A DNA stretch of 64,000 nucleotides from Woeseiaceae bacterium (GCA_021773035.1 JAJFKU010000052.1:8040-72039), one strand, 5' to 3'. Positions 46,190 through 64,000 are shown, numbered from the stretch's first letter. Numbers and translations are program-made. Notes: generated by a model from the letters alone, not told the origin.

Positions 46190-46197
46190 CCCCTTTT
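46152..46197. terminator. Perfect 22-bp-arm hairpin between convergent genes (bidirectional terminator / REP-like element)
   Basis: AAAAGGGGTCAGAGCCCTTTTT-ag-AAAAAGGGCTCTGACCCCTTTT with A/T runs on both sides. A 16-nt piece recurs at 53693-53708. Confidence 0.75.
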
Positions 46198-47108: not shown

Positions 47109-47186
47109 TATGTCTCCTTTAATGGTCTGGTGGTGGAGTATTAGTCCATGTACCGTTGGCTTTCGTCAAGTCACTGAGGCAGGCAT

Positions 47187-47591
47187 ATGGCAGCCGTTCG
47201 CGGTCCGGCCCCCGGGTTTCATCGTCACCCGGATCACAGCATCCGCATCCACAAGGCCACCGGGCGCTGGCGTGCCCTGGATGGCGACAGGCTGCTGGCG
47301 GAGTCGCACAATGCCCGAATTCTGGAAGAGTCCGGCTATGGCGCGGTCGTCTATTTTCCAGGTTCGGATGTCCGGGATGAAGCGTTGGCTGTCAGTCCGT
47401 CGGAGACAAGCTGCCCTTTCAAGGGACGGGCGCGCTATTTCCGTTCTGTTGCCAATCCCGGTGGCCCCGACATCGCCTGGAGCTACCCCGGCACCTACGA
47501 GGAAGTCGTCGACATAGAGGGCTTTATTGCTTTTTACGCCGATCGTATTTCGCTCGAACACACTAAACCTGAAGCACCTGAGGACAGTTAA
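47187..47591 (+). CDS. DUF427-domain protein
   Basis: Pattern ...VVYFPGSDV...TSCPFKGRARYF...IAWSYP...IEGFIAFY matches my recollection of DUF427. Confidence 0.75.
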   Translation: MAAVRGPAPGFHRHPDHSIRIHKATGRWRALDGDRLLAESHNARILEESGYGAVVYFPGSDVRDEALAVSPSETSCPFKGRARYFRSVANPGGPDIAWSYPGTYEEVVDIEGFIAFYADRISLEHTKPEAPEDS

Positions 47592-48064
47592 TGGCCAAGC
47601 TAATTCTGAGTAAGCGAGTCAATGCAACAATCGAAGACGTCTGGAATAGCTGGAACGACTTCGGAAACATCTACAAATACAATCCCGCTCTGCGCGCATC
47701 GAGGTTGCTGGGCAACCCGGACGTGGCGACGCGAGTTGGGACGCAGCGCCAGTGTGATATGGCAGACGGCAGGAACTGGATACGCGAGGAGATTATCGAT
47801 TACCGGCGAGGCGAACTGATCAAGCTCGATGTTTACGATGGCACGATGCCGTTGAAATCAATGGTGGTCGATATCGAGTTCGAGGAGATTTCGACGCTTC
47901 GCACGAGGGTTCGATTTACCGCGGAGTTCGAGCCGAAGTTCGGTCTCGTGGGGAGGCTCATGGCGCCTCTGATGAAGCGTCAGTTCGAACCGATGCTGCA
48001 GGCGCTGCTGGATGCCAATGCCGACTACGTTGAGAATGGCAAAGAGGTGGCCATGGCCGCGTAA
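47591..48064 (+). CDS. SRPBCC (polyketide cyclase/dehydrase-like) family protein
   Basis: 157-aa protein; VEDVWNSWNDFGNIYKYNP pattern. TAATG overlap with the DUF427 gene. Confidence 0.75.
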   Translation: MAKLILSKRVNATIEDVWNSWNDFGNIYKYNPALRASRLLGNPDVATRVGTQRQCDMADGRNWIREEIIDYRRGELIKLDVYDGTMPLKSMVVDIEFEEISTLRTRVRFTAEFEPKFGLVGRLMAPLMKRQFEPMLQALLDANADYVENGKEVAMAA

Positions 48065-48106
48065 GCAGGTAATATCGGGTATTCGCCGACACTCTGGGAA
48101 TACCCG

Positions 48107-49411: not shown

Positions 49412-51032
49412 ACCTTGGTTCGATCAGTACGATTCCTGGGTGCCGCAGGAAATCGATGCGGATAGTTACAGCAGTGTCGTCGAAATGATGCTGGAAGCCG
49501 GCGAACGTTTTCAGGATCGCGTCGCCTTCAGTAGTTTCGGCGCGACCATAAGCTATGCCGAGGTGCTGTCCCTGTCTCGCGATTTCGCGGCCTATCTGCA
49601 AAACGAGCTGGGAGTTCGCAAAGGCGACCGCGTTGCCCTGATGGCACCGAATATGATGGCGTTTCCGATCGCGATGCTCGGTATTCTTCGAGCCGGCGGC
49701 GTTCAGGTCAACGTGAATCCGATGTACACCGAGCGGGAGCTTGAGCATCAGCTGAACGATGCCGACGTCGAGACTATTGTCGCTTTCTCGGGTTCGACAG
49801 TAACGCTGGCCGACGTTATTGAACACACGAGTATCAAGAACATCATCGTTGCCGATCTGGATGACCTGCTCGATATTGAATTACCGTCACCGCCCGTGCA
49901 CGACGACCTGAAGAGCTTTGTCGCATTTACCGATGCGATCGCGGCCGGCAGCGACATGGAGCTTTCCGATGTGGATTTGGTCGGTGACGATCTGATCTAT
50001 CTGCAATACACGGGTGGCACGACCGGCCTTTCGAAGGGCGCCATGCTGACGCACCGAAACCTGATCGCCAATGTCTTACAGTTCGAGAGCTTCGCGGGCG
50101 ACTATATCAAGCACGGTGAAGACGTCGTCATGACGGCTATTCCGATGTATCACATCTTCGCCCTGATGGTGAATACGCTGTCTTACTTCAAATTCGGCGG
50201 CACCAACGTCCTGATTACCGACCCTCGCAAGATGCCGGCGTTCGTGGCGGAGTGGTCGAAATGGAAAGTGTCGGTATTTACAGGAGTGAATACGCTCTAC
50301 AACGGCTTGCTGCATACACCCGGATTCTCCGAGCTCGACTTTTCGAGCCTCGGCTTCAGCATGGGCGGCGGTGCGCCGGTGCAAAAAGCGGTGTCGGATA
50401 AATGGAAGGAAGTGACCGGCAAGCACATCAAAGAAGGTTACGGCCTGTCCGAGACGTCACCGGTACTCACTGTCAACCCGTTCGGTATGCATGACTTCAA
50501 AAGCAGCATCGGCGTTCCTGTACCGTCTACCGATATTTCGCTGCGCGATGACGATGGCAATGAGGTTGCGCAGGGCGAGCGTGGCGAATTGTGTGCCAAG
50601 GGACCGCAGGTTATGAAGGGTTATTGGCGGCGCGACGATGCCACCGCCGAATCGATGACAGACGACGGTTATTTTTGCACCGGCGATATCGCGATCATGG
50701 ACGAAACCGGTTTCTTTCGTATCGTCGATCGTAAGAAAGACATGATCCTGGTGTCTGGATTCAACGTCTTTCCGAACGAAATCGAGGCGGAAGTCGCCGC
50801 GATGGATGGTGTTCTTGAGTGCGCCTGTATTGGTGTGCCGGATGAAAAATCCGGTGAAGCGGTGAAGGTCTTTATCGTGAAGTCCGATGAGTCACTGACG
50901 CGTGAGGATGTTCGTGCGCATTGCAAGGAGCGCCTGACCGGCTACAAGGTGCCGGACCATATCGTCTTCATCGATGAGCTGCCGAAGTCGACGGTTGGTA
51001 AAATACTGCGACGGGAGCTTAGAGACTACTAA
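49404..51032 (+). CDS. fadD: Long-chain-fatty-acid--CoA ligase
   Basis: AMP-binding signature (LQYTGGTTGLSKGAMLTHRNL), GYGLSETSP, TGDIAIMDETGFFRIVDRKKDMI and C-terminal GKILRREL. The ATG at 49404 overlaps the upstream stop. Confidence 0.92.
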   Translation: MNKPWFDQYDSWVPQEIDADSYSSVVEMMLEAGERFQDRVAFSSFGATISYAEVLSLSRDFAAYLQNELGVRKGDRVALMAPNMMAFPIAMLGILRAGGVQVNVNPMYTERELEHQLNDADVETIVAFSGSTVTLADVIEHTSIKNIIVADLDDLLDIELPSPPVHDDLKSFVAFTDAIAAGSDMELSDVDLVGDDLIYLQYTGGTTGLSKGAMLTHRNLIANVLQFESFAGDYIKHGEDVVMTAIPMYHIFALMVNTLSYFKFGGTNVLITDPRKMPAFVAEWSKWKVSVFTGVNTLYNGLLHTPGFSELDFSSLGFSMGGGAPVQKAVSDKWKEVTGKHIKEGYGLSETSPVLTVNPFGMHDFKSSIGVPVPSTDISLRDDDGNEVAQGERGELCAKGPQVMKGYWRRDDATAESMTDDGYFCTGDIAIMDETGFFRIVDRKKDMILVSGFNVFPNEIEAEVAAMDGVLECACIGVPDEKSGEAVKVFIVKSDESLTREDVRAHCKERLTGYKVPDHIVFIDELPKSTVGKILRRELRDY

Positions 51033-51081: not shown

Positions 51082-53142
51082 CTAGAAGTGATAGCTGATG
51101 CCGACCTTGAGTGTTCGCTCAGCACCGTAAAGCCGTGTCCCAACGGCGATATCGGAACCCATGGCGCGATTGATACCGGCCAGATGGTCCTGATACGTGG
51201 TATCGAACAGATTTTCGACATGGGCTTCGAGCTGAACCGAGGAGGCAGGCGACCAGGAAAACCCGAGGTTAAATATTTCGTATGCTTCGGTCTGCTGTTC
51301 TGCATTGAACGCAGAAACGTCTTTCTGGCTGGCATAGGCAACAAAGCGCGTGTTCAGCGACCAGGTATCGGCGTTGTAAACCAGGCCCAGGCTGCCGTTA
51401 AAGGGCGCAAGCCGGTAGAGGTTGTCCGAAACATCCGTGCGGCGTCCTCGCGAGTAGTTCGCGATACCGTCCAGCTTCAGTCGCTCGGAAATGTCGAAAG
51501 TCCAGGCCACGTCCACGCCCCAGATGTCGGCATCGGTGTTTGCGAACTGTAGTGCGGGCTGCCCGGTCATCATGGTCGAAACCATGTTGGCCATTGCATT
51601 AGTGGCGGGAACGCCCTGTATGAAACCATCGATCCGTTTGAAATAGATCTGCGGCGCCAGGTTGAAGCGCCCGATCGAGGCAAACAAGCCGATGTTCACT
51701 TCGTGCGCCTTCTCGGAATCGAGCGTCAGGTCGCCGATGTACGTCCGTCCATCGGCCAGCCCGCCGGTTGCCTGCAGTGGTAACCATAAATACAGCTCCT
51801 GGTAAGACGGTGCTCGTGATTTTTGTCCGAGTTCGAATTGCCATTCAAGTTCACTGCTGGTCCGGTAACTGTATTTGACGACAGCATCGATATCGTCGAA
51901 ATCCAGGTCGCGTGTGGCGGCGTTGAACATCGTGGCCAGGTTCTGCGGCCCGGCATTCATCATTCCGCTTACCCCGACATCGCCGGCGTCGCTGCTTACG
52001 CGTTTGAACCTGAGCCCGAGTTCGATATCTGACGATTGCCCCTCGAGTGTCCACTCGCCAAATGCGCTGATGAGGTCTCTCTGCACGTCCGAGAAGTTGA
52101 TGACCCGGAACGCTGCATTGTTGGGATTGGTGATGATCGAATCATGTTCGGCGAAAACCCCGTCAAGACCGACCTTCAGCGATGACGACTCCAGATCGAC
52201 GGTCCCGGCCAGGGTCAGTGTTTCACCGCTGCCCGTGGCTCTATTCTGGCGATACATCATCGGCATGGGTGCCTGGCGATAGGAGAAGTTGTCCATTAGA
52301 TGGTCAACGTCGTTTACCGAGAGGCGACCCTCGATTGTCAGCGCTGGCGATAGCGCGTACTGGAAATGGCCACCGGCGAGGTCGGTCTCGATGAAAAGAA
52401 TGTCCATCGGTAGCGCCGGGGTTCCGGAATCCACCGTGTCCAGCCTTCCTGCGAAAACTACGAGATGATTGTCACCGGCGGCATACGCGTAGCTCAAATC
52501 GTAGCGCTTCCGGTCAACTCCCGAAGGGCGGATAGTTCCGGCTGGCGTCTCTATATCGGAACCGGAATCCACCTCCGAGATTGCAGAGATACGATGGGAC
52601 TGATTGGACAAAGTCAGCCGGCCGGCGGACGTCCCGACGTCTCCATTCTGCGAATAGCGTGAGCCGAGAAACCCGGACAGCTCGAAGTCGCTAGCAGCGA
52701 ATTCGCCACGCGCCATGCTGGTTCTGATGTGACCGCCGATGGACTCAGCGGCCGAAGTGACGCTCGCAATGCCGCGCTCGACTTGCAGCGATTCCGTAAT
52801 CATCGGTGAGACGTAGCTAATCGGCGCGTCCATCGCGTTCGGACCACCGGAGACGATTGCGTGGTTGTCGATCGTGATTGCTACACGGTCGCCAAACATG
52901 CCGCGGTATTGAGCGATACCGGTAATCGGACCGTTGCTATTGACGTTTGCGCCGGGCAGGTTCTTGAGCGCAGCCGCGGTGTCGACGAGTAACTCTTGCT
53001 CGACGTTGATATCTAGTGCGCGCGTCGTGACGGAATGTCCGGCGACGATGATTTCGTCAATCGTTTCCTTCGATTCTTCGGCCGACACGCCGATAGGGCA
53101 GACAACGAGCAGCGCGACCGCTGCTTTCATTGGCAGTTTCAT
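51082..53142 (-). CDS. TonB-dependent receptor (metal, possibly copper, by context)
   Basis: Signal peptide, plug (DEIIVAGHSVTTRALD), barrel and terminal ...GISYHF. Lies downstream of a DUF2946-like His-rich gene. Confidence 0.88.
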   Translation of the reverse strand: MKLPMKAAVALLVVCPIGVSAEESKETIDEIIVAGHSVTTRALDINVEQELLVDTAAALKNLPGANVNSNGPITGIAQYRGMFGDRVAITIDNHAIVSGGPNAMDAPISYVSPMITESLQVERGIASVTSAAESIGGHIRTSMARGEFAASDFELSGFLGSRYSQNGDVGTSAGRLTLSNQSHRISAISEVDSGSDIETPAGTIRPSGVDRKRYDLSYAYAAGDNHLVVFAGRLDTVDSGTPALPMDILFIETDLAGGHFQYALSPALTIEGRLSVNDVDHLMDNFSYRQAPMPMMYRQNRATGSGETLTLAGTVDLESSSLKVGLDGVFAEHDSIITNPNNAAFRVINFSDVQRDLISAFGEWTLEGQSSDIELGLRFKRVSSDAGDVGVSGMMNAGPQNLATMFNAATRDLDFDDIDAVVKYSYRTSSELEWQFELGQKSRAPSYQELYLWLPLQATGGLADGRTYIGDLTLDSEKAHEVNIGLFASIGRFNLAPQIYFKRIDGFIQGVPATNAMANMVSTMMTGQPALQFANTDADIWGVDVAWTFDISERLKLDGIANYSRGRRTDVSDNLYRLAPFNGSLGLVYNADTWSLNTRFVAYASQKDVSAFNAEQQTEAYEIFNLGFSWSPASSVQLEAHVENLFDTTYQDHLAGINRAMGSDIAVGTRLYGAERTLKVGISYHF

Positions 53143-53210
53143 TATTGGATCTCCTGAACAAACAGTATGCGGTGCAGCAGGCGCTGCACCTGTCTTTGTT
53201 TAACGTCCGT

Positions 53211-53612
53211 TCAGGCAGGCGGGGCGCGGGATCGATAGGCGGATGGGACGGTGCCGGGTGTTGCTACGACAATGGGGAGTATGGGTTGCTGAGTTATTGC
53301 TGTTGCGCTGACGATGCCGTCACCGTCATCGGTGGGCATTGCGGAAAACAGCAGATGACCGAACTGGCACAGGTCGGCTCCGGCCGCAGCTTGCAAACTG
53401 TCGCCGTCGTTATGGTGGTGATGATGCTCGTGGGCTGAACTGTCGGCGCCCGGCAATACGTATCCCGGCGGCAGCTGGTCCGGACATAGCTCGAACAACA
53501 GTCCGCTGCCGGCACTGGCCGGCATGTAGCCAAGCGGTGTTACGGCACGCAGTGCCAGCCCAAACAACAGGGTTGGCAACAGCAGGTATCTGTAGACAGG
53601 CCGTAACATCAC
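53211..53612 (-). CDS. DUF2946-like His-rich small secreted/membrane protein
   Basis: N-terminal TM/signal, LFELCPDQ..., a HEHHHHHNDGD run and LCQFGHLL. DUF2946 proteins typically precede TonB-dependent copper receptors. Confidence 0.65.
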   Translation of the reverse strand: MMLRPVYRYLLLPTLLFGLALRAVTPLGYMPASAGSGLLFELCPDQLPPGYVLPGADSSAHEHHHHHNDGDSLQAAAGADLCQFGHLLFSAMPTDDGDGIVSATAITQQPILPIVVATPGTVPSAYRSRAPPA

Positions 53613-53733: not shown

Positions 53734-54309
53734 CTAGTAGGTGGATTGCTCGAGAAAGGCGGCCAGATCGGACTTTGCCGACGCCTGTTTGTCCCAGGGC
53801 TCATACGACTCTGGCCGGGTCCCGGTCGTCTGCACGCGTACTTCCGTAGCGGCAGCAACGAGCCGGAGCTGATCGATGGTCACCTCGTAATAGGCATCGG
53901 CCGCTGACGCGACAGGCTGAGTATACACGCGCTCGCTGGCGCCAATAGCATCGGCGGTCCAGCCGGATACCTGCAGCGGCAATGGCTCACCATCGGCGTA
54001 AATGACGATGGACTGGAAGCCATCACGCAGTGCCGGCGACTCCGCTGCGACCATCGTGTTCCAGATGCCCAGCCACAGGTAGTAGCGATAGTCGCCCATG
54101 CGGTTGATCTCCAGTGGGCCCAGATACAGATAGTCTCTCGCGAATGCCGCTCTGCCGGATTCGTCACGGTAGAAAACAAGAGGTGTCTGGCTATAGGTGA
54201 TGGTTACCGCGGTCGCCGGATCGAGCTTATTTCTGGTAATGCCGCCATCGTTCGCGCAGCCGCTCAGAAGCAGCGCAATTGCCGCAGCGTTAACGGCGGC
54301 GATTCTCAA
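53734..54309 (-). CDS. Lipoprotein, last gene of the multiheme cytochrome operon
   Basis: Lipobox (IALLLSGCANDG). The TTG start overlaps the upstream TGA (TTGA). No family recognised. Confidence 0.7.
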   Translation of the reverse strand: MRIAAVNAAAIALLLSGCANDGGITRNKLDPATAVTITYSQTPLVFYRDESGRAAFARDYLYLGPLEINRMGDYRYYLWLGIWNTMVAAESPALRDGFQSIVIYADGEPLPLQVSGWTADAIGASERVYTQPVASAADAYYEVTIDQLRLVAAATEVRVQTTGTRPESYEPWDKQASAKSDLAAFLEQSTY

Positions 54310-56759
54310 AAGAACACCTGGTAGCCGAGGTTGATGAAATGGGATTCACGATCCAGATCGTTCCCCTGTATTTCCTGCTGTGAAAACTGTTTTCCCGTTT
54401 CGAGGTCTATGCGGAATTTCTGGCTACGACGGTATTGTAGGCGAAAACCTGGTGTGTAAAGCCATTCATAGCCTGAGTTGCCCAACCGTTCCCGGCGATC
54501 AACGCGCAGTCTCGGGTTGATACGCCAGGATTTCCCGAAAGGAAAGCGGCTGTCGAAAGACAGCGATGCTACTCGAGAGGTATCAGAGTTTGAATAACGC
54601 ACGGTAATGATCGACACATCGCCTTCTTTCAAAAGGCTGCTGGCAACGATGCTGCCCGAGTAGTAGTTGTAGGAAGTTGCCGGAGTATCGAGCACGCCAC
54701 CCGATGCCGGCGTGCCGTCCGTCGTCGATTGGGTCATGTCTGCATTGATCTGCAATTTGGGTGACAGGGGGTAGGACATGCCTATCGTATAAGATGTCGA
54801 TTGTGCAGTACGATCCTGGCCGAGCTGCCGCAGTTCATGCTCGCTGAAAATCGCTGTGAGTTCTGTGAACGACACGACCGGTTGACCGATCATCGCGTTC
54901 CCCGCGCTCAAGAACGGGTTTCCGCGCCGGTCGACAAGCGCATGAATGGAAAGGCGGGAATCGAAACGCCAGCTGCCTTGCAGGAAAGCACTGGCAAGTT
55001 CGCCAAAACCCAGATCGTAGTCAATTTGCGCCCAGAGGTTGCGATTCGTACCAAAGTAACGCAGTTCGCCGCCGACGGCCCGGCGGTCCTGAATACCCTC
55101 AATATTCTGCTCTATAAAGAACAAACCGAGATCGAGTCCGTCGAAAACAGGCCCGTAGTTCAGACTGGCACCGTAAAAAGTTCGTTCGTCATCGATGCTG
55201 TCCGACGACGAGTACGCCGGCTTTCCCGCGACAGCGTTGACGAGGATTCTCTCATTGAGCTCATAGCCGAGGTTCAATCCGTCGAAGCGGCCGAGGACAC
55301 CGCCAGTGTTCCGGGACTGGCGCCCGATTCGACCGCGCAGTCCGGTTACGGCGTCTGCCAGATCGGCGTACGCATACGAGATTCGTGTGCTATTGCCGGA
55401 ACTGGTCGTACTATCCAGAAAATCATTGCGATAACCGGCAGACAGCCGACTGCTGAAGTCAAAGCGGTCACCGCGCCGGCGGGCGTCGAAATTAATGTCG
55501 GAATACAATGCCGATTGACTGATGATTTCTTGCTGATCGTTCTGCTGGTTCGCATCCCGTCGGTAGTATTGCGAGAAGAATGTCTGGATTCGCCAGTCGC
55601 TGCGCTGAGCAGCTCGAGAATTCCCGGCAGCCGGAGATGAGCCCGTCGCACCGCTTTGTCTGCCGCTGGAGAGCAGCGCGGCGAGTCGCTGGCGGACCCG
55701 GTTCGCACCTTCGCTATCGGGGTAGAGTGAGAGATAGCGCTCATACTCTGCTTTTGCGTGTGCGGTTTGCCCTTTCTTTTCTCTCGCCAGGGCCAGGTAT
55801 TCCTGAGCTTCCGCCTGGCGTGGATGCTCCGGTAACTGCAGAATCTTCGTGTAGATTTGTACGGCCCTGGATGTGTCTCCGGCGATCATCGTCTTACGGG
55901 CATCCTCCATCAAAACGTCGATCCTCGAACCCGCGCTGACTCCCTCAGCGACGTCTTCAGTCTGCGTCGTCTGCTTCGACGTAGCGATAGTGGTTGAAAC
56001 TGCGTCGCCGTCCTCCCGGTCAATCCAGGCGCCGGGGAACGTCGCCGTCAGGGCGGCCAGCGCTCTATTGGCAGCGTCGGCCGAAGCGAAGTCGCCGAAC
56101 CGCAGCCGATACCAGGCAATCCCGTCAATGACCACCTCCTTGTAGAAAAGGCGTTGTCCGTCCTCAAGTTGCAGGTCGAGGGCATCAGCCAGCGTCGGCG
56201 TGCGTCGCAACGATGCCAGATTAATCACCCAGTTAACCGTCGCTATCGGCGCTTGCAGAACCTGCCGATGAAGGATGTCCGATTCACGCCCGGTTTCGGC
56301 CTTGCCGGACGACTGCCCGGCCTCCGGCCTGACGTGTACAACAAGTTCAAATGACAGCGCCGCCATATCGATGTCAAATTCGACTGGCTCGCTGAATATC
56401 AGCGTCAATACGGAGCCCGCGGCCGATTCACCATCGTATTCAAGTTCGAGCAGATGAGCGTTGTCCGAATTGAACGGTCGTAGCCGGGTTTTCGATCTGG
56501 CGACGGTTGGCGACACGCCGTTGCAGATGCTGCTCGGTTCGAGGAAAACGCGCAGGCGATCGCCGCCGCCGAGTGGTTCATGTCGCAGGTATTGTGTTTT
56601 GCAGTTGAACCGAACGTGGATGTCGGCATCAGCAGGTTCGCCCGACTCCGCTGTCGAGACTCGCGAACTGCCGATAAAACCGGGGGCGGCAATGGCGAGC
56701 GACGCCATCTGGATGAGTAGCGCACCACCAAACCACAGAGCAAACCGCCGAGCTACCAT
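54306..56759 (-). CDS. Outer-membrane protein: signal peptide + SPOR-like domain + TPR + about 430-aa C-terminal beta-barrel
   Basis: Signal (LWFGGALLIQMASLAIAAPG), SPOR-like stretch (WVINLASLRR...IAWYRLRFGDFASADAANRALAALTATFPGAWI) and TPR (AVQIYTKILQL...EYERYLSLYPDS). The C-terminal half has alternating amphipathic strands and ends ...NLGYQVFF. Confidence 0.8.
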   Translation of the reverse strand: MVARRFALWFGGALLIQMASLAIAAPGFIGSSRVSTAESGEPADADIHVRFNCKTQYLRHEPLGGGDRLRVFLEPSSICNGVSPTVARSKTRLRPFNSDNAHLLELEYDGESAAGSVLTLIFSEPVEFDIDMAALSFELVVHVRPEAGQSSGKAETGRESDILHRQVLQAPIATVNWVINLASLRRTPTLADALDLQLEDGQRLFYKEVVIDGIAWYRLRFGDFASADAANRALAALTATFPGAWIDREDGDAVSTTIATSKQTTQTEDVAEGVSAGSRIDVLMEDARKTMIAGDTSRAVQIYTKILQLPEHPRQAEAQEYLALAREKKGQTAHAKAEYERYLSLYPDSEGANRVRQRLAALLSSGRQSGATGSSPAAGNSRAAQRSDWRIQTFFSQYYRRDANQQNDQQEIISQSALYSDINFDARRRGDRFDFSSRLSAGYRNDFLDSTTSSGNSTRISYAYADLADAVTGLRGRIGRQSRNTGGVLGRFDGLNLGYELNERILVNAVAGKPAYSSSDSIDDERTFYGASLNYGPVFDGLDLGLFFIEQNIEGIQDRRAVGGELRYFGTNRNLWAQIDYDLGFGELASAFLQGSWRFDSRLSIHALVDRRGNPFLSAGNAMIGQPVVSFTELTAIFSEHELRQLGQDRTAQSTSYTIGMSYPLSPKLQINADMTQSTTDGTPASGGVLDTPATSYNYYSGSIVASSLLKEGDVSIITVRYSNSDTSRVASLSFDSRFPFGKSWRINPRLRVDRRERLGNSGYEWLYTPGFRLQYRRSQKFRIDLETGKQFSQQEIQGNDLDRESHFINLGYQVFF

Positions 56760-59536
56760 TCTTTGTCGCTGATTCTATGGCAGCCGCTGCTGGCACAGTT
56801 CAGATCGTTTGCCAGACCGTTGTGATCGTCCTTGTCAGCTTTGTAATCTCTCGCATGGCATCCGGCACAGGTTGGCTGATAACCCGGCGAGGACCAGCTT
56901 ACGACTTCCGTGTTGCTGCGATGGCAGTCCGTACAGGCAAAGTTCCCGCGATGATCGAGCGGTTCGTAGGTGAGCCCGCTATGACTGTAGTCGGCGGGTG
57001 TCCAGGCGTTGGGACTGTGACATAAACCACAGTCCTGGCTGGTGTTGAAGTGTCCCGGGTTCTGTCCCGTCGCCTGGATTCCATTGTGGCAGGATGAGCA
57101 GGAGCCGAGCACCTGGTTGTGGTCGACGGCCACAACGGGAATCCAGACGGTCGGACTGTGACAGTCTTCGCAGACGTTCGTCGTTTGCACGTGAGCCGGT
57201 CCTTTGCCGGTCGCGTCGCTGCCGTTGTGGCAGCTTGAACAGTTGTCCACGATATTCGTATGGTCGAAATTAGCCGGTGTCCACGCGACTGTCGTGTGAC
57301 AGTCGTCGCAGTTGTTGCCGCTCGCGATATGTGTCGGATGTTTGCCGATGGCAAGCGTGCCGTTGTGGCAGGAGCTACAGGCGCCGAGAACCTGCGTGTG
57401 GTCAACCGTGTAGGGTGGAATCCAGGTATTCGGTGTATGACAGTCTTCGCAGACGGTGCTCGTCTGAATGTGATTCGGGTTTTTGCCCGTTGCATCGGTG
57501 CCGTTGTGGCAATTCGCGCAGTTGCCGGTGATATTGATGTGATCGAAATTGGCGGGCAGCCAGGCTGTCGTTGCATGGCAATCGTCACAGTTATTGCCGC
57601 TGCTAATGTGGGTTGGATTCTTACCGGTAGCCTCGACGCCATTGTGGCAGCTGACGCAATTACCCGTGATGCCGACATGGTCGAAATTGGCCGGCAGCCA
57701 GGCAACGGTGGAGTGGCAGTCATCACAGCTGTTGCCGCTCGTGATGTGCGCCGGATGTTTGCCGGTCGCGCTTACGCCATCGTGGCAGGAGCCGCAGGAG
57801 CCAAGCACCTGGGTATGGTCGACGTTGATAGCGGGCGCCCAGGTATTGCTGCTGTGGCAGTCTTCGCAGACATTGCTGGTCTGGATGTGTGCCGGGTTTT
57901 TGCCGGTGGCGTCGACACCGTTGTGACAGCTGACGCAATTGCCGGTGATGCCAACGTGGTCGAAGGTCGCCGGCCGCCAGGCAACAGTGGAATGGCAGTC
58001 GTCGCAGGTATTCGGGCTTGTGATATGTGTAGGATGCTTGCCGATTGCGGTAATGCCATCGTGACAGGAGTTACAGGTGCCGATGACCTGTGTGTGATCG
58101 ACGGTAAAGGCCGGCGCAAATACGTTCGTGTTGTGACAGTCTTCGCAGACATTACTGGTCTGGATATGTGCCGGGTTTTTGCCGGTCACGTCGACACCGT
58201 TGTGGCAGTCGACACAGTTCCCGGTGATGTTGAGGTGATCGAAGTTCGCCGGTAACCAGCCAAGGGTTGAATGGCAGTCATCGCAGGTGTCGCCGCTGTT
58301 GATATGATCCGGCGTCTTGCCGCTTGCGGTCAGGCCATCGTGGCAGGAGCCGCAGGCACCGATGACCTGCGTGTGATCGACCGTATCTGCCGGCACGAAG
58401 ACGTTGGTGTTGTGGCAGTCCTCGCAGGTAGCCGTCGTCTGAATATGAGAGGGGTTCTTGCCGGTCACGTCGACACCGTTGTGACAATTGACACAATTGC
58501 CGGTGATTTCCGAATGGTTGAAATTCGCGGGCAGCCAGGCAAGCGTCGAGTGACAATCGTCACAATTCGTGCCACTCGGGATATGTGTGGGGTTCTTGCC
58601 TTCAGCGGTGATTCCGTCATGGCAGGAGCCGCAACTTCCGAGGGCCTGCGTATGATCAACGGTGAGTGCTGGCGCCCATACATTCGGGTTATGACAATCC
58701 TCGCAAACATCGGTAGTCAAAACGTGTGTCGGGTTCTTTCCAGTGGCTTCAACGCCGTTGTGGCAGCTGACACAGTTTCCCGTGATATTCACATGATCGA
58801 AGTTGGCGGGCAGCCAGCCGACTGTCGAGTGGCAATCGTCGCACTGATCACCGCTGCTGAGATGGGTTGCATGTTTACCGGCCGCGGATACGCCGTTGTG
58901 GCAGGATCCGCAGGTTCCCAGTACCTGCGTATGGTCAACGGTGAACGCCGGTTCAAAAGTGATCGTACTATGACAGTCTTCGCAAACATTCGTCGTTTGC
59001 ACGTGCGATGGACTCTTGCCGACTGCAGTCAGCCCATTGTGGCAGCTCACGCAATTGCCGCTGATACCCGCATGGTCGAATGTAGCCGGTGTCCATCCGC
59101 TCGTGGTATGGCAGTCGTCGCACTGATCGGTTGACGAAATGTGGGCCGGTGTTTTGCCGCTTGCCTGAACCCCGTTGTGGCAGCTGACGCAGTTGCCGGT
59201 CAGCGACGAATGATCGACATAGGTGACAATGCTCCAGGCTGCGGTGATATGACAGTCCGAACATTCTCCAACCGTCGAGACGTGATTCGATGGTTTCGAC
59301 GATGCGCGTACCAGGCTGCTCTGAGAGTGACAACTGGTGCAGGTCGAATTGGTGGGGCCAAACGTGCCGCTGACATGGCAGCCCTCGCAAGTGACGTTGG
59401 TATGCGCGCCATCTAGAACGAAGCCGGTACTGAAATGGTCGAAGCTGGTTTGTGAGAGCGCGTCAGTGGATACGAACAGTCCAGACAACATGATGGCCAG
59501 GATTAGAGCGCCGCTACCTAAAACAGTGGTCTTCAT
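56753..59536 (-). CDS. Giant secreted multiheme c-type cytochrome (37 CXXCH + 1 CX4CH)
   Basis: Sec signal (MKTTVLGSGALILAIMLSGLFVSTDALSQ). I counted 37 CXXCH plus a terminal CASSGCH. From motif 5 to motif 35 the spacers are 18 or 19 residues, each carrying one conserved His (FDH/VDH or GK.P.H). Confidence 0.9.
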   Translation of the reverse strand: MKTTVLGSGALILAIMLSGLFVSTDALSQTSFDHFSTGFVLDGAHTNVTCEGCHVSGTFGPTNSTCTSCHSQSSLVRASSKPSNHVSTVGECSDCHITAAWSIVTYVDHSSLTGNCVSCHNGVQASGKTPAHISSTDQCDDCHTTSGWTPATFDHAGISGNCVSCHNGLTAVGKSPSHVQTTNVCEDCHSTITFEPAFTVDHTQVLGTCGSCHNGVSAAGKHATHLSSGDQCDDCHSTVGWLPANFDHVNITGNCVSCHNGVEATGKNPTHVLTTDVCEDCHNPNVWAPALTVDHTQALGSCGSCHDGITAEGKNPTHIPSGTNCDDCHSTLAWLPANFNHSEITGNCVNCHNGVDVTGKNPSHIQTTATCEDCHNTNVFVPADTVDHTQVIGACGSCHDGLTASGKTPDHINSGDTCDDCHSTLGWLPANFDHLNITGNCVDCHNGVDVTGKNPAHIQTSNVCEDCHNTNVFAPAFTVDHTQVIGTCNSCHDGITAIGKHPTHITSPNTCDDCHSTVAWRPATFDHVGITGNCVSCHNGVDATGKNPAHIQTSNVCEDCHSSNTWAPAINVDHTQVLGSCGSCHDGVSATGKHPAHITSGNSCDDCHSTVAWLPANFDHVGITGNCVSCHNGVEATGKNPTHISSGNNCDDCHATTAWLPANFDHINITGNCANCHNGTDATGKNPNHIQTSTVCEDCHTPNTWIPPYTVDHTQVLGACSSCHNGTLAIGKHPTHIASGNNCDDCHTTVAWTPANFDHTNIVDNCSSCHNGSDATGKGPAHVQTTNVCEDCHSPTVWIPVVAVDHNQVLGSCSSCHNGIQATGQNPGHFNTSQDCGLCHSPNAWTPADYSHSGLTYEPLDHRGNFACTDCHRSNTEVVSWSSPGYQPTCAGCHARDYKADKDDHNGLANDLNCASSGCHRISDKEW
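57030..59120. repeat. Diverged tandem coding repeat, about 279-bp (93-aa, 4-heme) period, about 7.5 copies
   Basis: Repeating protein unit CDDCH-x18-CV(S/N/D)CH-x18-CEDCH-x19-C(G/N/S)SCH-x18. Nucleotide copies appear roughly 75-85% identical by eye, e.g. around 57640-57720 versus 57910-57990. Confidence 0.8.
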
Positions 59537-61104
59537 TGCAGCGTTCTCACTTCTCTGAACGATTCGGCTGTGTGGCAGCGGCCACAGTCGGAGCCGAATT
59601 CATCGTCATGCACATCATCAGCGCGATGACAGCTCCCACAGCTACCGTCGATGGTCTTCATCCGGTCCAGTGAGCTGCGGTGACAGTCACTGCAGGCGAC
59701 CGTCGTATGGGCACCTTGCAGCGGGAAAGCGGTTTGCTCCTTATGATCGAAAATCCACAGCTCCCATCCCACCGGGTTGTGGCAGGAGCCGCAGCGCTGC
59801 GGGAAGTTGCCGCGGTGTGGGTCGTCATCGATATGGCAGGACGTGCAGTCACTCTCGGCGTTGGCGAAAGCCTGCGTTTCATGGCAGTCCTCGCATTCGT
59901 TGCCACGATGTGCGCCAAGTAGCGGAAACCGCGTGAGATCGTGATCGAAGAAGATCGGGTCCTGCCAGGTTACTTCCGTGTGGCAGCTCTCACACAGGGT
60001 ACCCAGCGTGCCCTCGTGAACATCATCGTCGATATGGCAGGACTCACAGCCAGTCGTTAACGTTACTTCGAAGATGGGTTCGACGTGGCAGTCGTTACAC
60101 GCCACCTCCGCATGTGCACCAAGAATCTCATAGTCCGTGTCCTGGTTGTGGTCGAAGCCCGGCTCTGACCAGGCATCGTTGTTGTGACAGGTATCGCATT
60201 GATCGCCGTTATGCCCGCCATGGTCGTCGTCCTCGAGGTGACAGGAGACGCAGGCCATGTCCATAACGTCCTCGAACGGCGTTTCCGAATGACAGTCATT
60301 GCAGGAAAGCTCGGCATGCCTGCCGAGCAGTTCGAAATCGGTATCGCGGGCGTGATCGAAACTCGAGTCGTGCCAGTCACCGGGATTGTGGCAGTTTCCG
60401 CAATCATTGCCGCTGCGACCGTTATGGGCATCGTCTTCGGCATGGCAGTCGAAGCAGGCGCTCGCCGGAGCCGGCAGAAATGTCCTGTCTTCATGACAGT
60501 CCAGGCATGCGGCCTCGCGGTGTTGTCCGAGCAGGGGGTAGTCCGTCGTGTCATGGTCGAATTCTGCGTCCAGCCACTCAACCGGCCGGTGGCAGGTAGC
60601 GCAATCAGTCGCCATTGTGTCCTGATGTGGCTCGTCCTCGCTATGGCAATCGACGCAATCCGAGGCGACCGCGCGGTGCTTTTCTCCGCGGTCATGACAA
60701 TCACCGCAGTCGGCATCTTTGTGAGCACCGAGAAGTTCAAAGTCAGTAAAGGCGTGATCGAACGAATCTTCGTCGAGAATGACGACGATCGCGTCTCGCC
60801 CCTCGTGTTCCGTATGACATGACGAACACTGTTCAATGCTTGCCTCGGTATGCAGGCCATGAAAACCGAAGCTGTCGTTGACGTCTGCAGCGACATCCTC
60901 ATGGCAGTCAAGGCACAGCTCGCGTTGCGCCTGTTTGTCGAACATTTTGTGGCACGAAGAACATTCGTTTTCCAGCTCTGCGTGTCCGACAATGACCTTG
61001 CCGGGCATGACCAGGGTTTCAATATCCTGAGCGGATGCCTTTTCTGATGTCATGAACGTCGTCATTAGGATTAATCCAAACGATATATATCGCCACAAAA
61101 TCAT
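59533..61104 (-). CDS. Secreted 21-heme c-type cytochrome built from seven c7-like triheme units
   Basis: Signal (FGLILMTTFMTSEKASAQD). I counted 21 CXXCH. They repeat as a triplet unit C..CH-x11/12-C..CH-x13-C..CH-x26/27, with FDH..T.F.L.G.H between units (doubled-CXXCH / cytochrome c7 style). Confidence 0.9.
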   Translation of the reverse strand: MILWRYISFGLILMTTFMTSEKASAQDIETLVMPGKVIVGHAELENECSSCHKMFDKQAQRELCLDCHEDVAADVNDSFGFHGLHTEASIEQCSSCHTEHEGRDAIVVILDEDSFDHAFTDFELLGAHKDADCGDCHDRGEKHRAVASDCVDCHSEDEPHQDTMATDCATCHRPVEWLDAEFDHDTTDYPLLGQHREAACLDCHEDRTFLPAPASACFDCHAEDDAHNGRSGNDCGNCHNPGDWHDSSFDHARDTDFELLGRHAELSCNDCHSETPFEDVMDMACVSCHLEDDDHGGHNGDQCDTCHNNDAWSEPGFDHNQDTDYEILGAHAEVACNDCHVEPIFEVTLTTGCESCHIDDDVHEGTLGTLCESCHTEVTWQDPIFFDHDLTRFPLLGAHRGNECEDCHETQAFANAESDCTSCHIDDDPHRGNFPQRCGSCHNPVGWELWIFDHKEQTAFPLQGAHTTVACSDCHRSSLDRMKTIDGSCGSCHRADDVHDDEFGSDCGRCHTAESFREVRTLQ

Positions 61105-61122
61105 ATTGCTCGTTCTGTCCGC

Positions 61123-62028
61123 TTAGTACATGTGCACTGCGAGCACGTGAAAGAGGGCGGATATAACAAGAAGAATAAACAGTGGCATGTGAAAAATGTG
61201 CCACAGCGAAAACAGGCGTTCGTAAAACGCCAGCTGCGCGACCTGCCGCATTAGCCCGGTTTGTTGGGCTGCGTAAGCATTCGCAGTTTTTCGGAGGTGT
61301 CTGGTATTGCTCATTACCACTTCGGATACGGCTGCTTTTTCACGCAGCTCCTTGTTAATCTGGACGTATAGGCGCAGCCGGACGATGTAGTACCTGAACG
61401 TCCAGGACAGGCTGTGCCGCAGGCTGATCGAGCGTGTAATTTCGTCGCCCGTCAACCTGGACGAAACCTTATGTAACTCGTGGATGAAACCCGGCATGAT
61501 CGCCGCCAGCCCACGGCTGTTGCCAAGGGCGTCGGCTATTTCTTCGCGCAGCTCTTCTATGCTGGCTCGCTTACCGTACAGACCACGGTGGATTCGGGTG
61601 TAGAAGTAGCGACCGACGATGCCGCTTATTGTGACGGCCAGCATACTGTACAAGGCAACCTTGCTGTTCAGCGCGTCGACACTGAAATTACAATGATAGA
61701 GAATCAGTGCCGGACCCACGAGTCCGAAAATCATGTGGATGCGAAACCAGTGTTTGACCAGGCCAAGTCGCCGCAGTATCGATGACTTCTTTCCGGCTGG
61801 ATAAAGAAGCAGAAGCAACATCAGCGAGCCACCAACGATTCCGAGCCAGTAACCGACGCCCTCTTCGGGATTGACCAGCTCGGTTTCGCGCAGGAACCAG
61901 CCGGCAACGACGGTGATGGCCAATAACAGGTAGCCATAGACACCTCGCCCTGACCGTTTACGAGATACTTTGCCAGCATCAACTTTCGCTTGCGTCGCAG
62001 CTACTTCGCTTACCGTCGTATCGATCAT
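61123..62028 (-). CDS. His-rich 5-TM inner-membrane protein (candidate b-type cytochrome / quinol-interacting module)
   Basis: TM helices YLLLAITVVAGWFL, WLGIVGGSLMLLLLLY, HWFRIHMIFGLVGPALILYH, LYSMLAVTISGIVGRYFY and LFSLWHIFHMPLFILLVISALFHVLAVH, with a soluble loop of about 110 aa. Conserved-looking intramembrane His pairs are present. Confidence 0.7.
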   Translation of the reverse strand: MIDTTVSEVAATQAKVDAGKVSRKRSGRGVYGYLLLAITVVAGWFLRETELVNPEEGVGYWLGIVGGSLMLLLLLYPAGKKSSILRRLGLVKHWFRIHMIFGLVGPALILYHCNFSVDALNSKVALYSMLAVTISGIVGRYFYTRIHRGLYGKRASIEELREEIADALGNSRGLAAIMPGFIHELHKVSSRLTGDEITRSISLRHSLSWTFRYYIVRLRLYVQINKELREKAAVSEVVMSNTRHLRKTANAYAAQQTGLMRQVAQLAFYERLFSLWHIFHMPLFILLVISALFHVLAVHMY

Positions 62029-62825
62029 TTACTGTATTCGTCTTGTTCTATTATCAGCGTCAGATGTTGGTTCTCGGCGACTCTGACGACCTCCGACTTC
62101 GCCTCGAGCCCCTGCAGGGTGGCAGTGGCGTCCCCGGATCGCGTGATTCGTGCCGTAACGATGACTTCCTCGACGTCGGAGAGCTTCATGTCGGCAGTCA
62201 TTGCCTGGCTATCATTCAGCGAGAAGTCGATCGGCAGCTCGGCTGCAGGTCGTTTCAGAACGGCTACGGGCATTGGCGATCCGTTGACGGCACGGGCAAA
62301 GATAAAAACCGTATCGGTCGGATTAACGAAACTCCTGGCTTCCGGCGCCAGGCTGACGTTACCGGATATCTGCGCGGCGGACGTGCCTGTCACGTTTTCC
62401 CCAGAGTTCAGCGCCGCCAACTCCGCATCAACCTGTCCCAGCGCGGCTGCTTTTGCATAGGCGTCGACGGCTTCGTCGAGTCGTCCGAGATGTCGATAGG
62501 AGCGCGCCAGCAGTAGCCAGCTGCCGCCATCGTTCGGATCGTCCTGCAGGCGTGCAGCCAGGCCGTCGACCATGCTCGCGACAGAGGCGATCTTTGTGTT
62601 GTTCGGTGCATTCGACGCGGTGTTTGACGGCAGGTGGGGTGGCTCGCCGGCCGTGCCTGAGCCTGGCGAGCCGAGTTTCATGTAGATCCCGAAGGCGACT
62701 ACCGGCAGCGATACGCAGACCACGAGCAACAAGGGCTTGCGATTCTCCTTAAGCAACGGCATTGCAATAAAGCCCAGCGCCACCGCTGCCATTACCGCTA
62801 CTAAAACCCAAAACAATCCGGCCAT
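62025..62825 (-). CDS. ccmI: CcmI/CycH-like c-type cytochrome biogenesis (apocytochrome chaperone) protein
   Basis: Two N-terminal TMs (FWVLVAVMAAVALGFIAMPLL; LLLVVCVSLPVVAFGIY) and TPR (GGSWLLLARSYRHLGRLDEAVDAYAKAAAL). The C-terminal region (VFIFARAVNGSPMPVAVLKRPAAELPIDFSLNDSQAM...VTARITRSGDA) is typical of CcmI. Confidence 0.65.
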   Translation of the reverse strand: MAGLFWVLVAVMAAVALGFIAMPLLKENRKPLLLVVCVSLPVVAFGIYMKLGSPGSGTAGEPPHLPSNTASNAPNNTKIASVASMVDGLAARLQDDPNDGGSWLLLARSYRHLGRLDEAVDAYAKAAALGQVDAELAALNSGENVTGTSAAQISGNVSLAPEARSFVNPTDTVFIFARAVNGSPMPVAVLKRPAAELPIDFSLNDSQAMTADMKLSDVEEVIVTARITRSGDATATLQGLEAKSEVVRVAENQHLTLIIEQDEYSK

Positions 62826-63272
62826 ATTCAGAACGCCTCAATTTCATCATCTGTTTGCGCGTTGAAAACTCATTATTATCAACACGTAAATCGAACGGGA
62901 AAGGTTCCGCTTTTTGCGAGAAAGTTTTCCCGATTCGTTGTTGGCTGGCGACGCGCTGATCATCCGCGCACGAACTACTGCAATAGTTCGACAATTGTCG
63001 AAAAAGAGGGTCCGGCTGTCGCCAATTGCAGACACACTGCGAACACCTTTCCAGCTTGGGAAACTACAGTATTTTCCAAATGCTGATATGGGGGGTTTCC
63101 TCTACTTTTCGCCTGCTCGCGGGTGGCCGGCGGTAGCCGGATAGGACGGCCGAAAGGCGCTTGTGTAAGAATTGTCTGAATTTCGGTGTTCCTGGCAGTA
63201 TTCCGAACCTTGATATGGACGTCGGGTATTCGTGAGTTTCAGATTTGCCGAAAGTACGCTGAAACAGAGATG

Positions 63273-63288
63273 TGTGAGATGAATCACA
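63273..63288. promoter_or_regulatory. Perfect CRP-type site TGTGA-N6-TCACA
   Basis: TGTGAgatgaaTCACA is centred about 77 nt upstream of the ATG at 63358, inside the 532-bp divergent intergenic region shared with the cytochrome operon. Confidence 0.6.
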
Positions 63289-63357
63289 TTAGTTCCTCTG
63301 TTTGGCCTTAGTCTCAGTCGCTAGTTGCGCAAGAAACAGGATGATTCGAAGTAAATC

Positions 63358-64000
63358 ATGTTCGACAGTGTTGTTAATTTTCTACTCTATGCGGTGCCGA
63401 TTCTGTTGATCCTGGCCTGGTATATCCGGCGTCATTCGAGTACTGAAACGAGCAGTCTGGAAACCCTGAAAACGGCTAAGGAAGAGGGCCTGATGGAGCC
63501 CCCGACTTTGCACCCCGAGATCGATCATCAACTCTGTATTGGCTGCACAAATTGTGTCGCGGCCTGCCCGGAACAAGGCGCGCATCAGGTGCTGGGGATG
63601 ATCAGAAAGAAGGCCAACCTGGTTGGGCCGACCAACTGCATTGGCCACGGCGCCTGTAAAACGGTCTGTCCGGTCAATGCGATCACCCTGGTTTTCGGAA
63701 CGGCGCAACGCGGTGTTGATATTCCGCGGGTCGATCCGAATTTCCAGACCAATGTGCCGGGCATTTTTATCGCCGGAGAACTAGGGGGCATGGGTCTGAT
63801 CAGGAATGCGGTGGAACAAGGTCGCCAGGCGATGCAGTCGATAAAGGAACTGGTGCGCACTCCGCATCGAAACGAACTGGACGTAGTCATCATAGGTGCC
63901 GGCCCGGCGGGTTTTTCCGCGACCTTGTCTGCAACAGAAGCGAAGCTTCGACATACGACGGTTGAGCAGGAAGAGTTGGGAGGAACCGTTGCCCACTTTC
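63358..64000 (+). CDS. Membrane-anchored 4Fe-4S ferredoxin domain fused to an FAD/NAD(P)-binding (thioredoxin-reductase-like) oxidoreductase, 3' end off window
   Basis: My own translation: MFDSVVNFLLYAVPILLILAWYI..., two Cys clusters (CIGCTNCVAACP and CIGHGACKTVCP), then DVVIIGAGPAGFSA dinucleotide fold. The frame is open to the window end and is absent from the ORF track because it has no stop. Confidence 0.8.
   Translation, partial: MFDSVVNFLLYAVPILLILAWYIRRHSSTETSSLETLKTAKEEGLMEPPTLHPEIDHQLCIGCTNCVAACPEQGAHQVLGMIRKKANLVGPTNCIGHGACKTVCPVNAITLVFGTAQRGVDIPRVDPNFQTNVPGIFIAGELGGMGLIRNAVEQGRQAMQSIKELVRTPHRNELDVVIIGAGPAGFSATLSATEAKLRHTTVEQEELGGTVAHF

Follow-up and report, generated by a model that had tools for sequence, protein, structure and literature searches.

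We describe a six-gene operon on the minus strand of a 64,000-nt stretch of DNA from a Woeseiaceae bacterium (GCA_021773035.1, JAJFKU010000052.1:8040-72039), which is called the window below and supplies the numbering of all local features. To judge from its sequence, the operon, at positions 53734-62825, is almost certainly a Woeseiaceae-type member of PCC3, an already described kind of gene cluster for porins and multihaem cytochromes, and we consider it probable (roughly 0.65) that its products would build a multihaem-cytochrome conduit across the cell envelope. Membership in PCC3 is concluded because the gene order, the motifs of the inner-membrane protein, the 21-haem cytochrome of seven modules and the homology to a Gallionellaceae cluster all match. 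A divergent neighbouring gene, coding for a putative FeS flavoprotein, is proposed as a further conserved component of the system.

The six open reading frames (ORFs), g1 to g6, have the coordinates given in a preliminary description of this DNA, and their junctions were confirmed as well, with overlaps of 4, 4, 7 and 4 nt and one gap of 18 nt, the latter between g2 and g3. The parts recorded there were recovered by translation and domain scans: a CcmI-like protein (g1), a His-rich protein with five transmembrane (TM) helices (g2), proteins with 21 (g3) and 37(+1) (g4) CXXCH motifs, an outer-membrane protein (OMP) of 817 aa (g5) and a lipoprotein (g6). The Cytochrome_C7, Paired_CXXCH, SPOR and TPR families were all matched in the genes in which they were expected, and the G+C content is even over the operon region.

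As described by He et al. 2017 (PMC5566968), PCC3 consists of four genes, for an inner-membrane protein (IMP), a periplasmic multihaem cytochrome (MHC), an extracellular MHC and a porin; the IMP has ~300 aa and five TM helices, with WX3HX13H on TM3 and TM5 and SGXXG on TM4, and the median haem numbers are 21 for the periplasmic and 34 for the extracellular cytochrome. Other carriers named in that study are Sideroxydans lithotrophicus ES-1 (Slit_1446-1449) and Leptothrix cholodnii SP-6, the order in ES-1 running from the IMP (Slit_1446) through 1447 and 1448 to the porin (1449). The PCC3 of the Riftia pachyptila endosymbiont combines a 21-haem protein, made of seven 66-aa repeats, with a 39-haem partner, and the periplasmic cytochromes in the PCC3 survey of Gallionellaceae by Hoover et al. 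2023 (PMC10734462) have haem counts that agree with 21, 24 and 27. The order IMP, periplasmic MHC, extracellular MHC and porin is common to Slit_1446-1449 and the locus analysed here, where g2 is likewise about 300 aa long with the exact IMP motifs, g3 follows after 18 nt with 21 haems in seven repeats of ~67 aa, g4 is larger, with 38 sites in 927 aa (~24 aa per haem) and a 93-aa repeat, and the OMP encoded in the cluster, g5, falls within about 730-870 aa. For the homology comparison a Gallionellaceae locus from a metagenome-assembled genome (MAG), L024, served as a stand-in for the reference proteins of Slit_1446-1449 and of Leptothrix (Lcho), and gave 35% identity for the IMP (3e-58), 41% for the first MHC (9e-136), 34% for the second (2e-96) and 26% for the OMP over residues 34-817 (5e-56).

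A scan seeded on g2 and confined to one genome per species yielded 54 loci. The closest 19 of these belong to Woeseiaceae and unclassified gammaproteobacterial MAGs and have the genes in the same order with 46-76% identity; the order of all six genes is kept and visible in the 15 that reach far enough, the others being cut by a contig end or having fragmented cytochrome genes. The IMP, the cytochrome with 21, 24 or 27 haems, the large cytochrome and the barrel protein are also kept in Gallionellaceae, Methylophilaceae, Nitrospira and Alphaproteobacteria, while the loci of Nitrospinaceae and Deltaproteobacteria have the IMP and both cytochromes, with no match to the barrel within the sequence fetched for them. 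Relatives of the IMP form at least 4033 clusters at 90% identity (3319 representatives at 50%), and those of the OMP number 1148. A 5.6-kb contig labelled Acidobacteriota (L002, JAJCXL010000524.1) carries a Woeseiaceae-type PCC3 fragment with 55-86% identity, and its label is likely to be a binning error.

The resemblance to PCC3 that the preliminary description had pointed out is therefore borne out by homology and synteny, and its suggestion of a new kind of system falls away, as the operon belongs to a cluster type already described; the word 'uncharacterised' is nevertheless justified, since as late as 2025 PCC3 was described as functionally unverified. Several features had been listed there as departures from PCC3. 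The haem counts are not a departure, given the published medians of 21 and 34 and the 21+39 of the Riftia symbiont, and a total of about 59 haems, which had been thought exceptional, is typical for the clade, since 21+39 haems are found in 13 loci of the Woeseiaceae type (and 27+64 in one from Methylotenera). An embedded ccmI does not set the operon apart either, as PCC3 is also accompanied by CcmI-like or ccmABC-E genes in Nitrospira, in Methylophilaceae and in many loci from metagenomes. As to the SPOR/TPR-barrel protein, the combination of TPR and barrel proved to be usual among the PCC3 OMPs scanned, whereas the SPOR domain does distinguish the Woeseiaceae type. The locus differs from the published PCC3 clusters in its hosts, which are Woeseiaceae-type marine Gammaproteobacteria, in the short CcmI-like gene added in front and the lipoprotein gene added behind, and in having a Pfam-detectable SPOR domain on the barrel protein, a promoter of the extracytoplasmic function (ECF) sigma type and a CRP-type box; the published four-gene description also lacks the FeS flavoprotein that adjoins most of the PCC3 loci found here. 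To the PCC3 papers found we add the flavoprotein, the recurrent link to CcmI, a model of a 22-strand SPOR/TPR barrel and a conserved ECF-type promoter. The papers found on Woeseia and multihaem cytochromes do not describe this cluster; one of them reports 'mtrCAB' in sediment Woeseiaceae MAGs, which could not be linked to the present locus.

The 5' part of the flavoprotein gene occupies positions 63358-64000 on the plus strand (214 codons, cut by the window end), divergent from the operon and separated from it by a shared intergenic region of 532 bp, and codes for a putative membrane-anchored oxidoreductase with a ferredoxin domain and FAD/NAD(P)H-binding features. The translation contains an N-terminal TM helix, RRH, CxxCxxCxxxCP, Cx5Cx3CP and GAGPAG. 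Full-length orthologues (425-438 aa) match Fer4 and Pyr_redox_3/Pyr_redox_2, are closest to YpdA/thioredoxin-reductase models and have no CxxC redox disulfide; the TM anchor and its flanking charges would place the enzyme in the cytoplasm. Of the 54 IMP-seeded loci, 42 had the gene within the ±10 kb that was fetched (52-86% identity), and it was absent from only four with enough flank; the protein is better conserved than any cytochrome of the cluster. A reciprocal metagenome scan seeded on the flavoprotein gave 588 relatives, the best 80 loci of which were considered; among the 54 that were informative (at least 1.5 kb of upstream sequence), 52 had PCC3 genes and 49 had the IMP. The linkage between flavoprotein and IMP thus runs both ways and extends over five phyla or classes. 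In most loci the flavoprotein gene is divergent from the IMP gene, and in Nitrospira it is co-directional and closes an MHC-OMP-CcmI-flavoprotein string. Because of this two-way neighbourhood link over several phyla we assign the flavoprotein to the PCC3 system, as its proposed fifth conserved component. An Fe-S gene beside the PCC4 IMP, or annotated as fused to it, was noted by He et al. 2017 (PMC5566968), who report nothing similar for PCC3. One entry in Table 1 of PMC10734462 might be the same flavoprotein, although that paper draws no link.

The PCC3 IMP is encoded by g2 (61123-62028, minus strand) and has 301 aa, five TM helices and 12 His. Its two WX3HX13H motifs read W94-x3-H98-x13-H112 and W276-x3-H280-x13-H294, and SGXXG is represented by S135-G136-x-x-G139 on TM4; both Trp, the four His of these motifs and S135, G136 and G139 are invariant in alignments of 14 and of 34 divergent homologues. 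The AlphaFold2 (AF2) model (pLDDT 77) has five TM helices, in agreement with the loop charges, and both point to an N-in, C-out topology with the N-terminus and residues 144-272 in the cytoplasm, the cytoplasmic part being helical, Lys/Arg-rich and about 125 residues long. In the predicted topology H98 and H280 lie near the inner face of the membrane and H112 and H294 near its outer face, and in the model the His pairs are stacked on the parallel helices TM3 and TM5, a geometry predicted to correspond to a trans-membrane di-haem b relay. The ferric reductase domain (FRD) family, to which NOX, FRE and STEAP proteins belong, is similar in that a pair of parallel TM helices each carries two His at a spacing of 13 residues, for which two stacked haems b are predicted in g2; it differs in having six TM helices rather than five, and no significant sequence or fold match connects the two. 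A placement of g2 in the FRD/NADPH oxidase (NOX) family was accordingly tried against PF01794 and solved NOX/STEAP structures and dropped: no homology was detected by sequence or fold, and g2 is not filed there because the fold evidence is negative. Among 34 IMP homologues, recurrent matches below threshold were to DUF4405 (24) and Ni_hydr_CYTB (8). Profile matches of g2 to the Protein Data Bank (PDB) are spurious, falling in the cytoplasmic loop on cytochrome b562 (BRIL) fusions. Some IMP homologues are 449-687 aa long (L028/L054 9545-10888; P0254, P0255, P0286, P0300-P0315) and have a long N-terminal extension before TM1, TPR-like, SPOR-like or of unrecognised sequence and presumably cytoplasmic; no fusion of IMP and CcmI was found, the long homologues carrying these other extensions.

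The two cytochromes are Sec-exported and follow one another on the minus strand. The 'periplasmic' cytochrome of PCC3 corresponds to g3 (59533-61104; 523 aa), in which 21 CXXCH motifs form seven c7-type trihaem modules of ~67 aa (Cytochrome_C7, 1e-23); its orthologues in 53 loci (34-72% identity) carry 21, 24 or 27 haems. The 'extracellular' cytochrome corresponds to g4 (56753-59536; 927 aa), with 37 CXXCH and a C-terminal CX4CH (residue 914), a motif every 23-24 residues and Cytochrome_C7 matched at 5e-58 over 16 stretches. Both proteins also match Cytochrom_c3_2 and Paired_CXXCH in Pfam, and the haem spacing is about 25 aa per haem. With 46 His for the 21 haem sites of g3 and 80 for the 38 of g4, the His content would be enough for bis-His ligation at every haem. 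Comparison with solved structures gave weak c3/c7 matches only, with no close relative of either protein. Among g4 orthologues the haem number is 23-39 in the Woeseiaceae type and reaches 64 in Methylotenera, and the C-terminal CX4CH is kept in Woeseiaceae-type, Gallionellaceae and Methylotenera orthologues. A tandem repeat inside g4 (57618-58663; Tandem Repeats Finder) has a unit of 279 bp, equal to 93 aa and four haems, in 3.8 copies with 74% matches, and probably drives the variation in haem number among these orthologues. In two MAG loci (L014 10666-14901 and L019 11365-15031) the cytochrome genes are split into short CXXCH-rich ORFs, which are probably frameshift errors in repetitive sequence and not real pseudogenes. 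A variant gammaproteobacterial PCC3 (L021 12398-18627) has a second cytochrome of 158 aa and five haems, then the barrel and a g6-like lipoprotein, and ends in an 830-aa, 26-haem cytochrome with a lipobox, which amounts to an MtrC-like lipoprotein solution for the outer cytochrome.

The gene g5 (54306-56759, minus strand) overlaps g4 at start and stop and codes for an 817-aa OMP in which the signal peptide is followed by a beta-sandwich (29-145), then by a SPOR-like domain (177-260), a TPR stretch of five helices (276-364) and finally a barrel (389-816). The AF2 model (pLDDT 77, the barrel blocks mostly 80-96) makes the C-terminal half a 22-strand beta-barrel with a helical insert at 620-649; this number lies far above the limit of about 16 strands below which, in the preliminary description, the conduit would have been refuted. 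SPOR (PF05036) was matched at residues 176-246 with 31.8 bits (cut-off 21), where the model has mixed strand and helix, and is present in most close homologues; no SPOR match was obtained in the distant PCC3 barrel proteins scanned, and the call is therefore confined to the Woeseiaceae type. TPR before a barrel was found in OMPs of 727-869 aa in the PCC3 loci scanned from Alpha-, Beta- and Gammaproteobacteria and Nitrospira; the Gallionellaceae OMP has no Pfam match, yet aligns with g5 over residues 34-817. Orthologues of g5 follow the large cytochrome gene in 30 loci. Foldseek returned generic outer-membrane barrels only, with a TM-score of at most 0.53 and AlgE and PelBC included, and MtrB was not in the top 50 matches. 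Like the TPR-barrel exporters (BcsC, PgaA, PelB, AlgK/AlgE), g5 has a periplasmic TPR region N-terminal to an outer-membrane barrel. It differs from them in its approximately five TPR helices, its 22 strands (polysaccharide-exporter barrels have 16-18) and its extra SPOR and beta-sandwich domains, and proteins of the g5 type invariably stand beside giant cytochrome genes, not polysaccharide synthases. Both an Mtr-like barrel and a polysaccharide-export barrel were rejected as identities for g5, on strand count, gene context and the lack of specific matches. The last gene, g6 (53734-54309, minus strand), has a TTG start and is translationally coupled to g5; it codes for a small lipoprotein of 191 aa with the lipobox LLSG-C after a 17-residue signal and Ala at +2. 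Searches of Pfam, NCBIfam and the PDB gave it no relatives, and it is kept after the barrel gene in 16 Woeseiaceae-type loci, the g6-like lipoprotein of the variant locus L021 having 33% identity.

Like MtrCAB, MtoAB and PioAB, the cluster pairs a multihaem cytochrome of the periplasm with a barrel in the outer membrane, and like Mtr it adds an outer cytochrome. It is distinguished from them by haem numbers of 21 and 38 as against 10 and 10, by an outer cytochrome, g4, that is not a lipoprotein, by a barrel modelled with 22 strands instead of the 26 of MtrB (PDB 6R2Q), and by an inner-membrane partner, g2, that is a helical protein with His pairs and not a CymA/NapC tetrahaem quinol dehydrogenase. 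The preliminary statement that none of the parts looks like Mtr holds insofar as g4 stays below the cut-offs of DmsE/MtrA decahaem TIGR03508 (140.5 bits against 192.2; g3 has 17 bits) and OmcA/MtrC TIGR03507 (23 bits against 209), and g5 has no MtrB_PioB match in Pfam at E<=0.01. It is only approximate, however, because g4 scores those 140 bits on DmsE/MtrA and passes PF22113 (MtrC/MtrF domain II/IV) as a whole protein (66 against 30 bits), with no single stretch passing. A second comparison is offered by the Geobacter c7 'polymer' cytochromes (the dodecahaem GSU1996, GSU2210; TIGR04257, nanowire_3heme), which have been proposed as periplasmic wires or capacitors. They too consist of tandem c7-type trihaem modules, of which g3 has seven; g3 stays below the TIGR04257 cut-off (20 against 40 bits), and the genes of the Geobacter proteins are not known to be accompanied by those for a barrel, an IMP and a flavoprotein.

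The conduit that we favour would begin in the cytoplasm. Electrons would pass from NAD(P)H to FAD and FeS centres of the flavoprotein, to the inner and then the outer haem b of g2, and on through g3 and the barrel to g4. The gene neighbourhood suggests the flavoprotein as the partner of g2 at the cytoplasmic face, a coupling to which we give an even chance, and the inner-membrane step would then resemble a split NADPH oxidase/ferric reductase and not a quinol dehydrogenase, where the preliminary description had envisaged a quinol-side module. The 21-haem g3 would span the periplasm from g2 to the barrel; g5 would be tethered to peptidoglycan through its SPOR/TPR region, and also to its cytochrome partner, with the barrel sheathing the cytochrome contact, and g4 would carry the electrons outside the cell. 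Net flow would then be directed outward, with Fe(III)/Mn(IV) minerals, humics or O2 as acceptors. We take outward flow as the likelier direction because, on general bioenergetic grounds, input from the NAD(P)H side is favoured by redox potential and membrane potential, inward flow from Fe(II) to NAD(P)+ or ubiquinone being uphill; the direction is put forward tentatively, and the wider proposal that PCC3 is a split NOX/ferric-reductase-like machine fed by NAD(P)H, instead of a quinone-linked conduit for Fe(II) oxidation, is more doubtful still. A two-component precedent of NOX type is offered by MsrQ/Fre and by bacterial NOX (PMC12525009, PMC5676040, PMC11031084). As with MsrQ/Fre, the candidate cytoplasmic flavin/NAD(P)H donor is encoded by a separate gene; the partner here is TrxR/YpdA-like and not of the FNR type, contains a ferredoxin domain and is anchored by a TM helix of its own, and the acceptor would be a 21-haem cytochrome c.

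A number of results weigh against this scheme. No Pfam family was matched by g2 above threshold, so that it is the motifs alone that suggest haem b binding, and its model had no Foldseek match with E<0.1 among solved structures, NOX and FRD proteins included. No fusion of IMP and flavoprotein was seen among the best 150 representatives, and the flavoprotein could serve another, merely co-regulated purpose. Apart from an ordinary Sec signal, g4 shows neither a lipobox nor any recognised signal for export to the surface, and because of this and of the lack of a demonstrated export route the term 'extracellular' for g4 rests on published predictions. The function of PCC3 is experimentally unshown in any carrier, and what stands of the envelope-spanning porin and multihaem conduit seen by the preliminary description is accordingly the co-oriented PCC3-type gene set, by homology and synteny, and not its function; PCC3 expression in Sideroxydans is modest and not clearly tied to oxidation of Fe(II) or magnetite. 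Many hosts are moreover aerobic lithotrophs (oxidisers of Fe(II) or nitrite), and for such cells an outward drain on NAD(P)H would seem expensive. The lack of a fusion and of a fold match and the many lithotrophic hosts make quinone-linked uptake a serious rival. In that model, proposed by He et al. (PMC5566968), who noted PCC3 in Fe(II) oxidisers, electrons enter from Fe(II) or reduced minerals outside the cell, the IMP acts as a quinone-reactive cytochrome b that passes them to the quinone pool, and the flavoprotein stands outside the path. It would suit the Gallionellaceae and other lithotrophs among our loci, the weak matches of 8 of 34 IMP homologues to Ni_hydr_CYTB (the family comprising quinone-reactive di-haem cytochromes b) and the higher level of the IMP of PCC3 copy 2 in Fe-oxidising cells of Sideroxydans CL21. 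We nevertheless think it unlikely: a two-way flavoprotein-IMP link over five phyla or classes is hard to explain if the flavoprotein is irrelevant, inward di-haem transfer opposes the membrane potential while the Fe(II)/ubiquinone couple gives, on general bioenergetic grounds, little driving force, and Fe(II) oxidation is not known from most of our carriers. When Fe(II) or magnetite was the growth substrate of ES-1, too, its PCC3 proteins were low or undetected, whereas Mto proteins rose.

The Sec signal of g4 would equally suit a system confined to the periplasm, in which the giant cytochromes are an electron store (capacitor) or periplasmic reductases and the barrel is a peptidoglycan-anchored scaffold or an exporter of other cargo. 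A capacitor role is mentioned by Hoover et al. (PMC10734462), and TPR plus barrel is the architecture of exopolysaccharide exporters, with AlgE and PelBC among the Foldseek matches of g5. Those matches are generic, however, the 22 modelled strands exceed the 16-18 of polysaccharide exporters, polysaccharide-synthesis genes were not found among the neighbouring ORFs scanned, and across phyla the barrel gene always comes after the large cytochrome gene, here with a start/stop overlap; such a periplasmic arrangement is accordingly considered improbable. That the operon is an accidental neighbourhood, or an artefact of ORF calling in repetitive sequence rich in Cys and His, has next to no probability and is refuted by conservation, as orthologues of every gene, 46-76% identical and in unchanged order, occur in Woeseiaceae-type loci, the domain matches are strong, and the IMP and OMP have at least 4033 and 1148 relatives, respectively. 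For the envelope-spanning conduit, the presence of the complete and well-conserved cluster in at least 19 genomes of the Woeseiaceae type suggests that this lineage, which in marine sediments ranks with the most abundant bacteria, has a hard-wired route for electrons to the outside; this would bear on the cycling of Fe and Mn and on how cells survive when oxygen fluctuates. If the NAD(P)H-fed version is true, Woeseiaceae, nitrite oxidisers, methylotrophs and iron oxidisers would possess a direct route from cytoplasmic reductant to extracellular acceptors, with possible uses in anoxic redox balancing, reductive mobilisation of Fe/Mn and extracellular reduction of O2. The flavoprotein and the CcmI-like chaperone challenge the quinone-linked model centred on Fe(II) oxidation that is used in PCC3 annotation, and they provide testable handles within a defined set of five to seven genes.

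The operon begins with g1 (62025-62825, minus strand), which codes for a short CcmI/CycH-like apocytochrome chaperone of 266 aa. Ig_CycH (PF23892) is matched at residues 154-260 (2e-31; 108 bits against a cut-off of 27), and there are one TPR stretch and two N-terminal TM helices (hydrophobic segments 1-27 and 29-53); PF23914 (TPR_CcmH_CycH; 32.9 against 42 bits) and TIGR03142 (26 against 29.3 bits) remain under their curated thresholds, and matches in the PDB were to generic TPR structures only. The N-terminal TM hairpin of CcmI/CycH recurs in g1, as do a TPR stretch and the Ig-like domain of CycH; g1 differs in its length (266 aa against about 400-430 aa), most TPR repeats being gone, and in that only Ig_CycH passes its cut-off. 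On these sequence features it is a truncated CcmI relative, and like NrfG it is encoded alongside its likely client cytochromes. It would act as a dedicated apocytochrome chaperone, presumably helping Ccm to load 59 haems onto two giant repetitive apocytochromes. The gene is kept in all 19 Woeseiaceae-type loci (46-67% identity). A full-length CcmI (425-427 aa), passing both Pfam models, adjoins the barrel gene in five Nitrospira loci, and in 19 of 45 divergent metagenome loci a CcmI-like gene stands between the flavoprotein and IMP genes. In two Methylophilaceae loci (L033 18070-20765 and L043 14232-14873) genes resembling ccmA, ccmB, ccmC and ccmE, assigned by N-terminal sequences only, come right after the PCC3 barrel gene; ccmABC-E form the haem-export and chaperone part of cytochrome c maturation. 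A linkage to ccm or CcmI is not mentioned in the PCC3 papers found.

The 532 bp between g1 and the flavoprotein gene (62826-63357) are non-coding. An ECF-sigma-type promoter motif, GGAACC-N16-CGTGT, lies on the minus strand at 62882-62908, starting 83 nt upstream of the g1 start codon, and is the sole match in the window (0.06 expected). Its GGAAC and CGTGT elements are invariant in an alignment of nine orthologous intergenic regions, and in 18 of the 19 sequences of Woeseiaceae type the motif precedes the CcmI-like gene by 70-131 nt. A sigma-70 scan gave no promoter on the operon strand, and transcription of the operon appears to start at the ECF-type motif. A CRP-type palindrome, TGTGA-N6-TCACA, at 63273-63288, some 70 nt upstream of the flavoprotein gene start, fits the CRP consensus and is likewise the only match in the 64 kb (0.05 expected); with at most one mismatch, such a box is present in 16 of the 19 intergenic regions of Woeseiaceae type and, among the divergent loci, in 33 of 77, every one of these 33 being of gammaproteobacterial type. 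An inverted repeat, TGTC-N10-GACA, at 63017-63034 is a candidate operator, with a GTC...GACA core conserved in the nine orthologous regions; taken alone it is not rarer than chance (three in the window, 1.2 expected). No FNR or Fur boxes were found in the intergenic regions, and Rfam gave no match in the window.

The genes flanking the operon belong to ordinary heterotroph metabolism. Ten ORFs scanned at 41954-51032 contained no ccm or further cytochrome genes, and code among others for a short-chain dehydrogenase/reductase, a thiolase, a Zn-dependent dehydrogenase, a glutathione S-transferase, a LysR regulator, a polyketide-cyclase-like protein, a major facilitator superfamily transporter and an AMP-dependent ligase. 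Directly downstream of g6, the minus strand at 51082-53612 carries a DUF2946-like gene (53211-53612; a weak match) and a gene for a TonB-dependent receptor (51082-53142), the top model of which is a copper receptor (171 bits; cut-off 472). In seven Woeseiaceae-type loci these two genes likewise lie 3' of the PCC3 operon.

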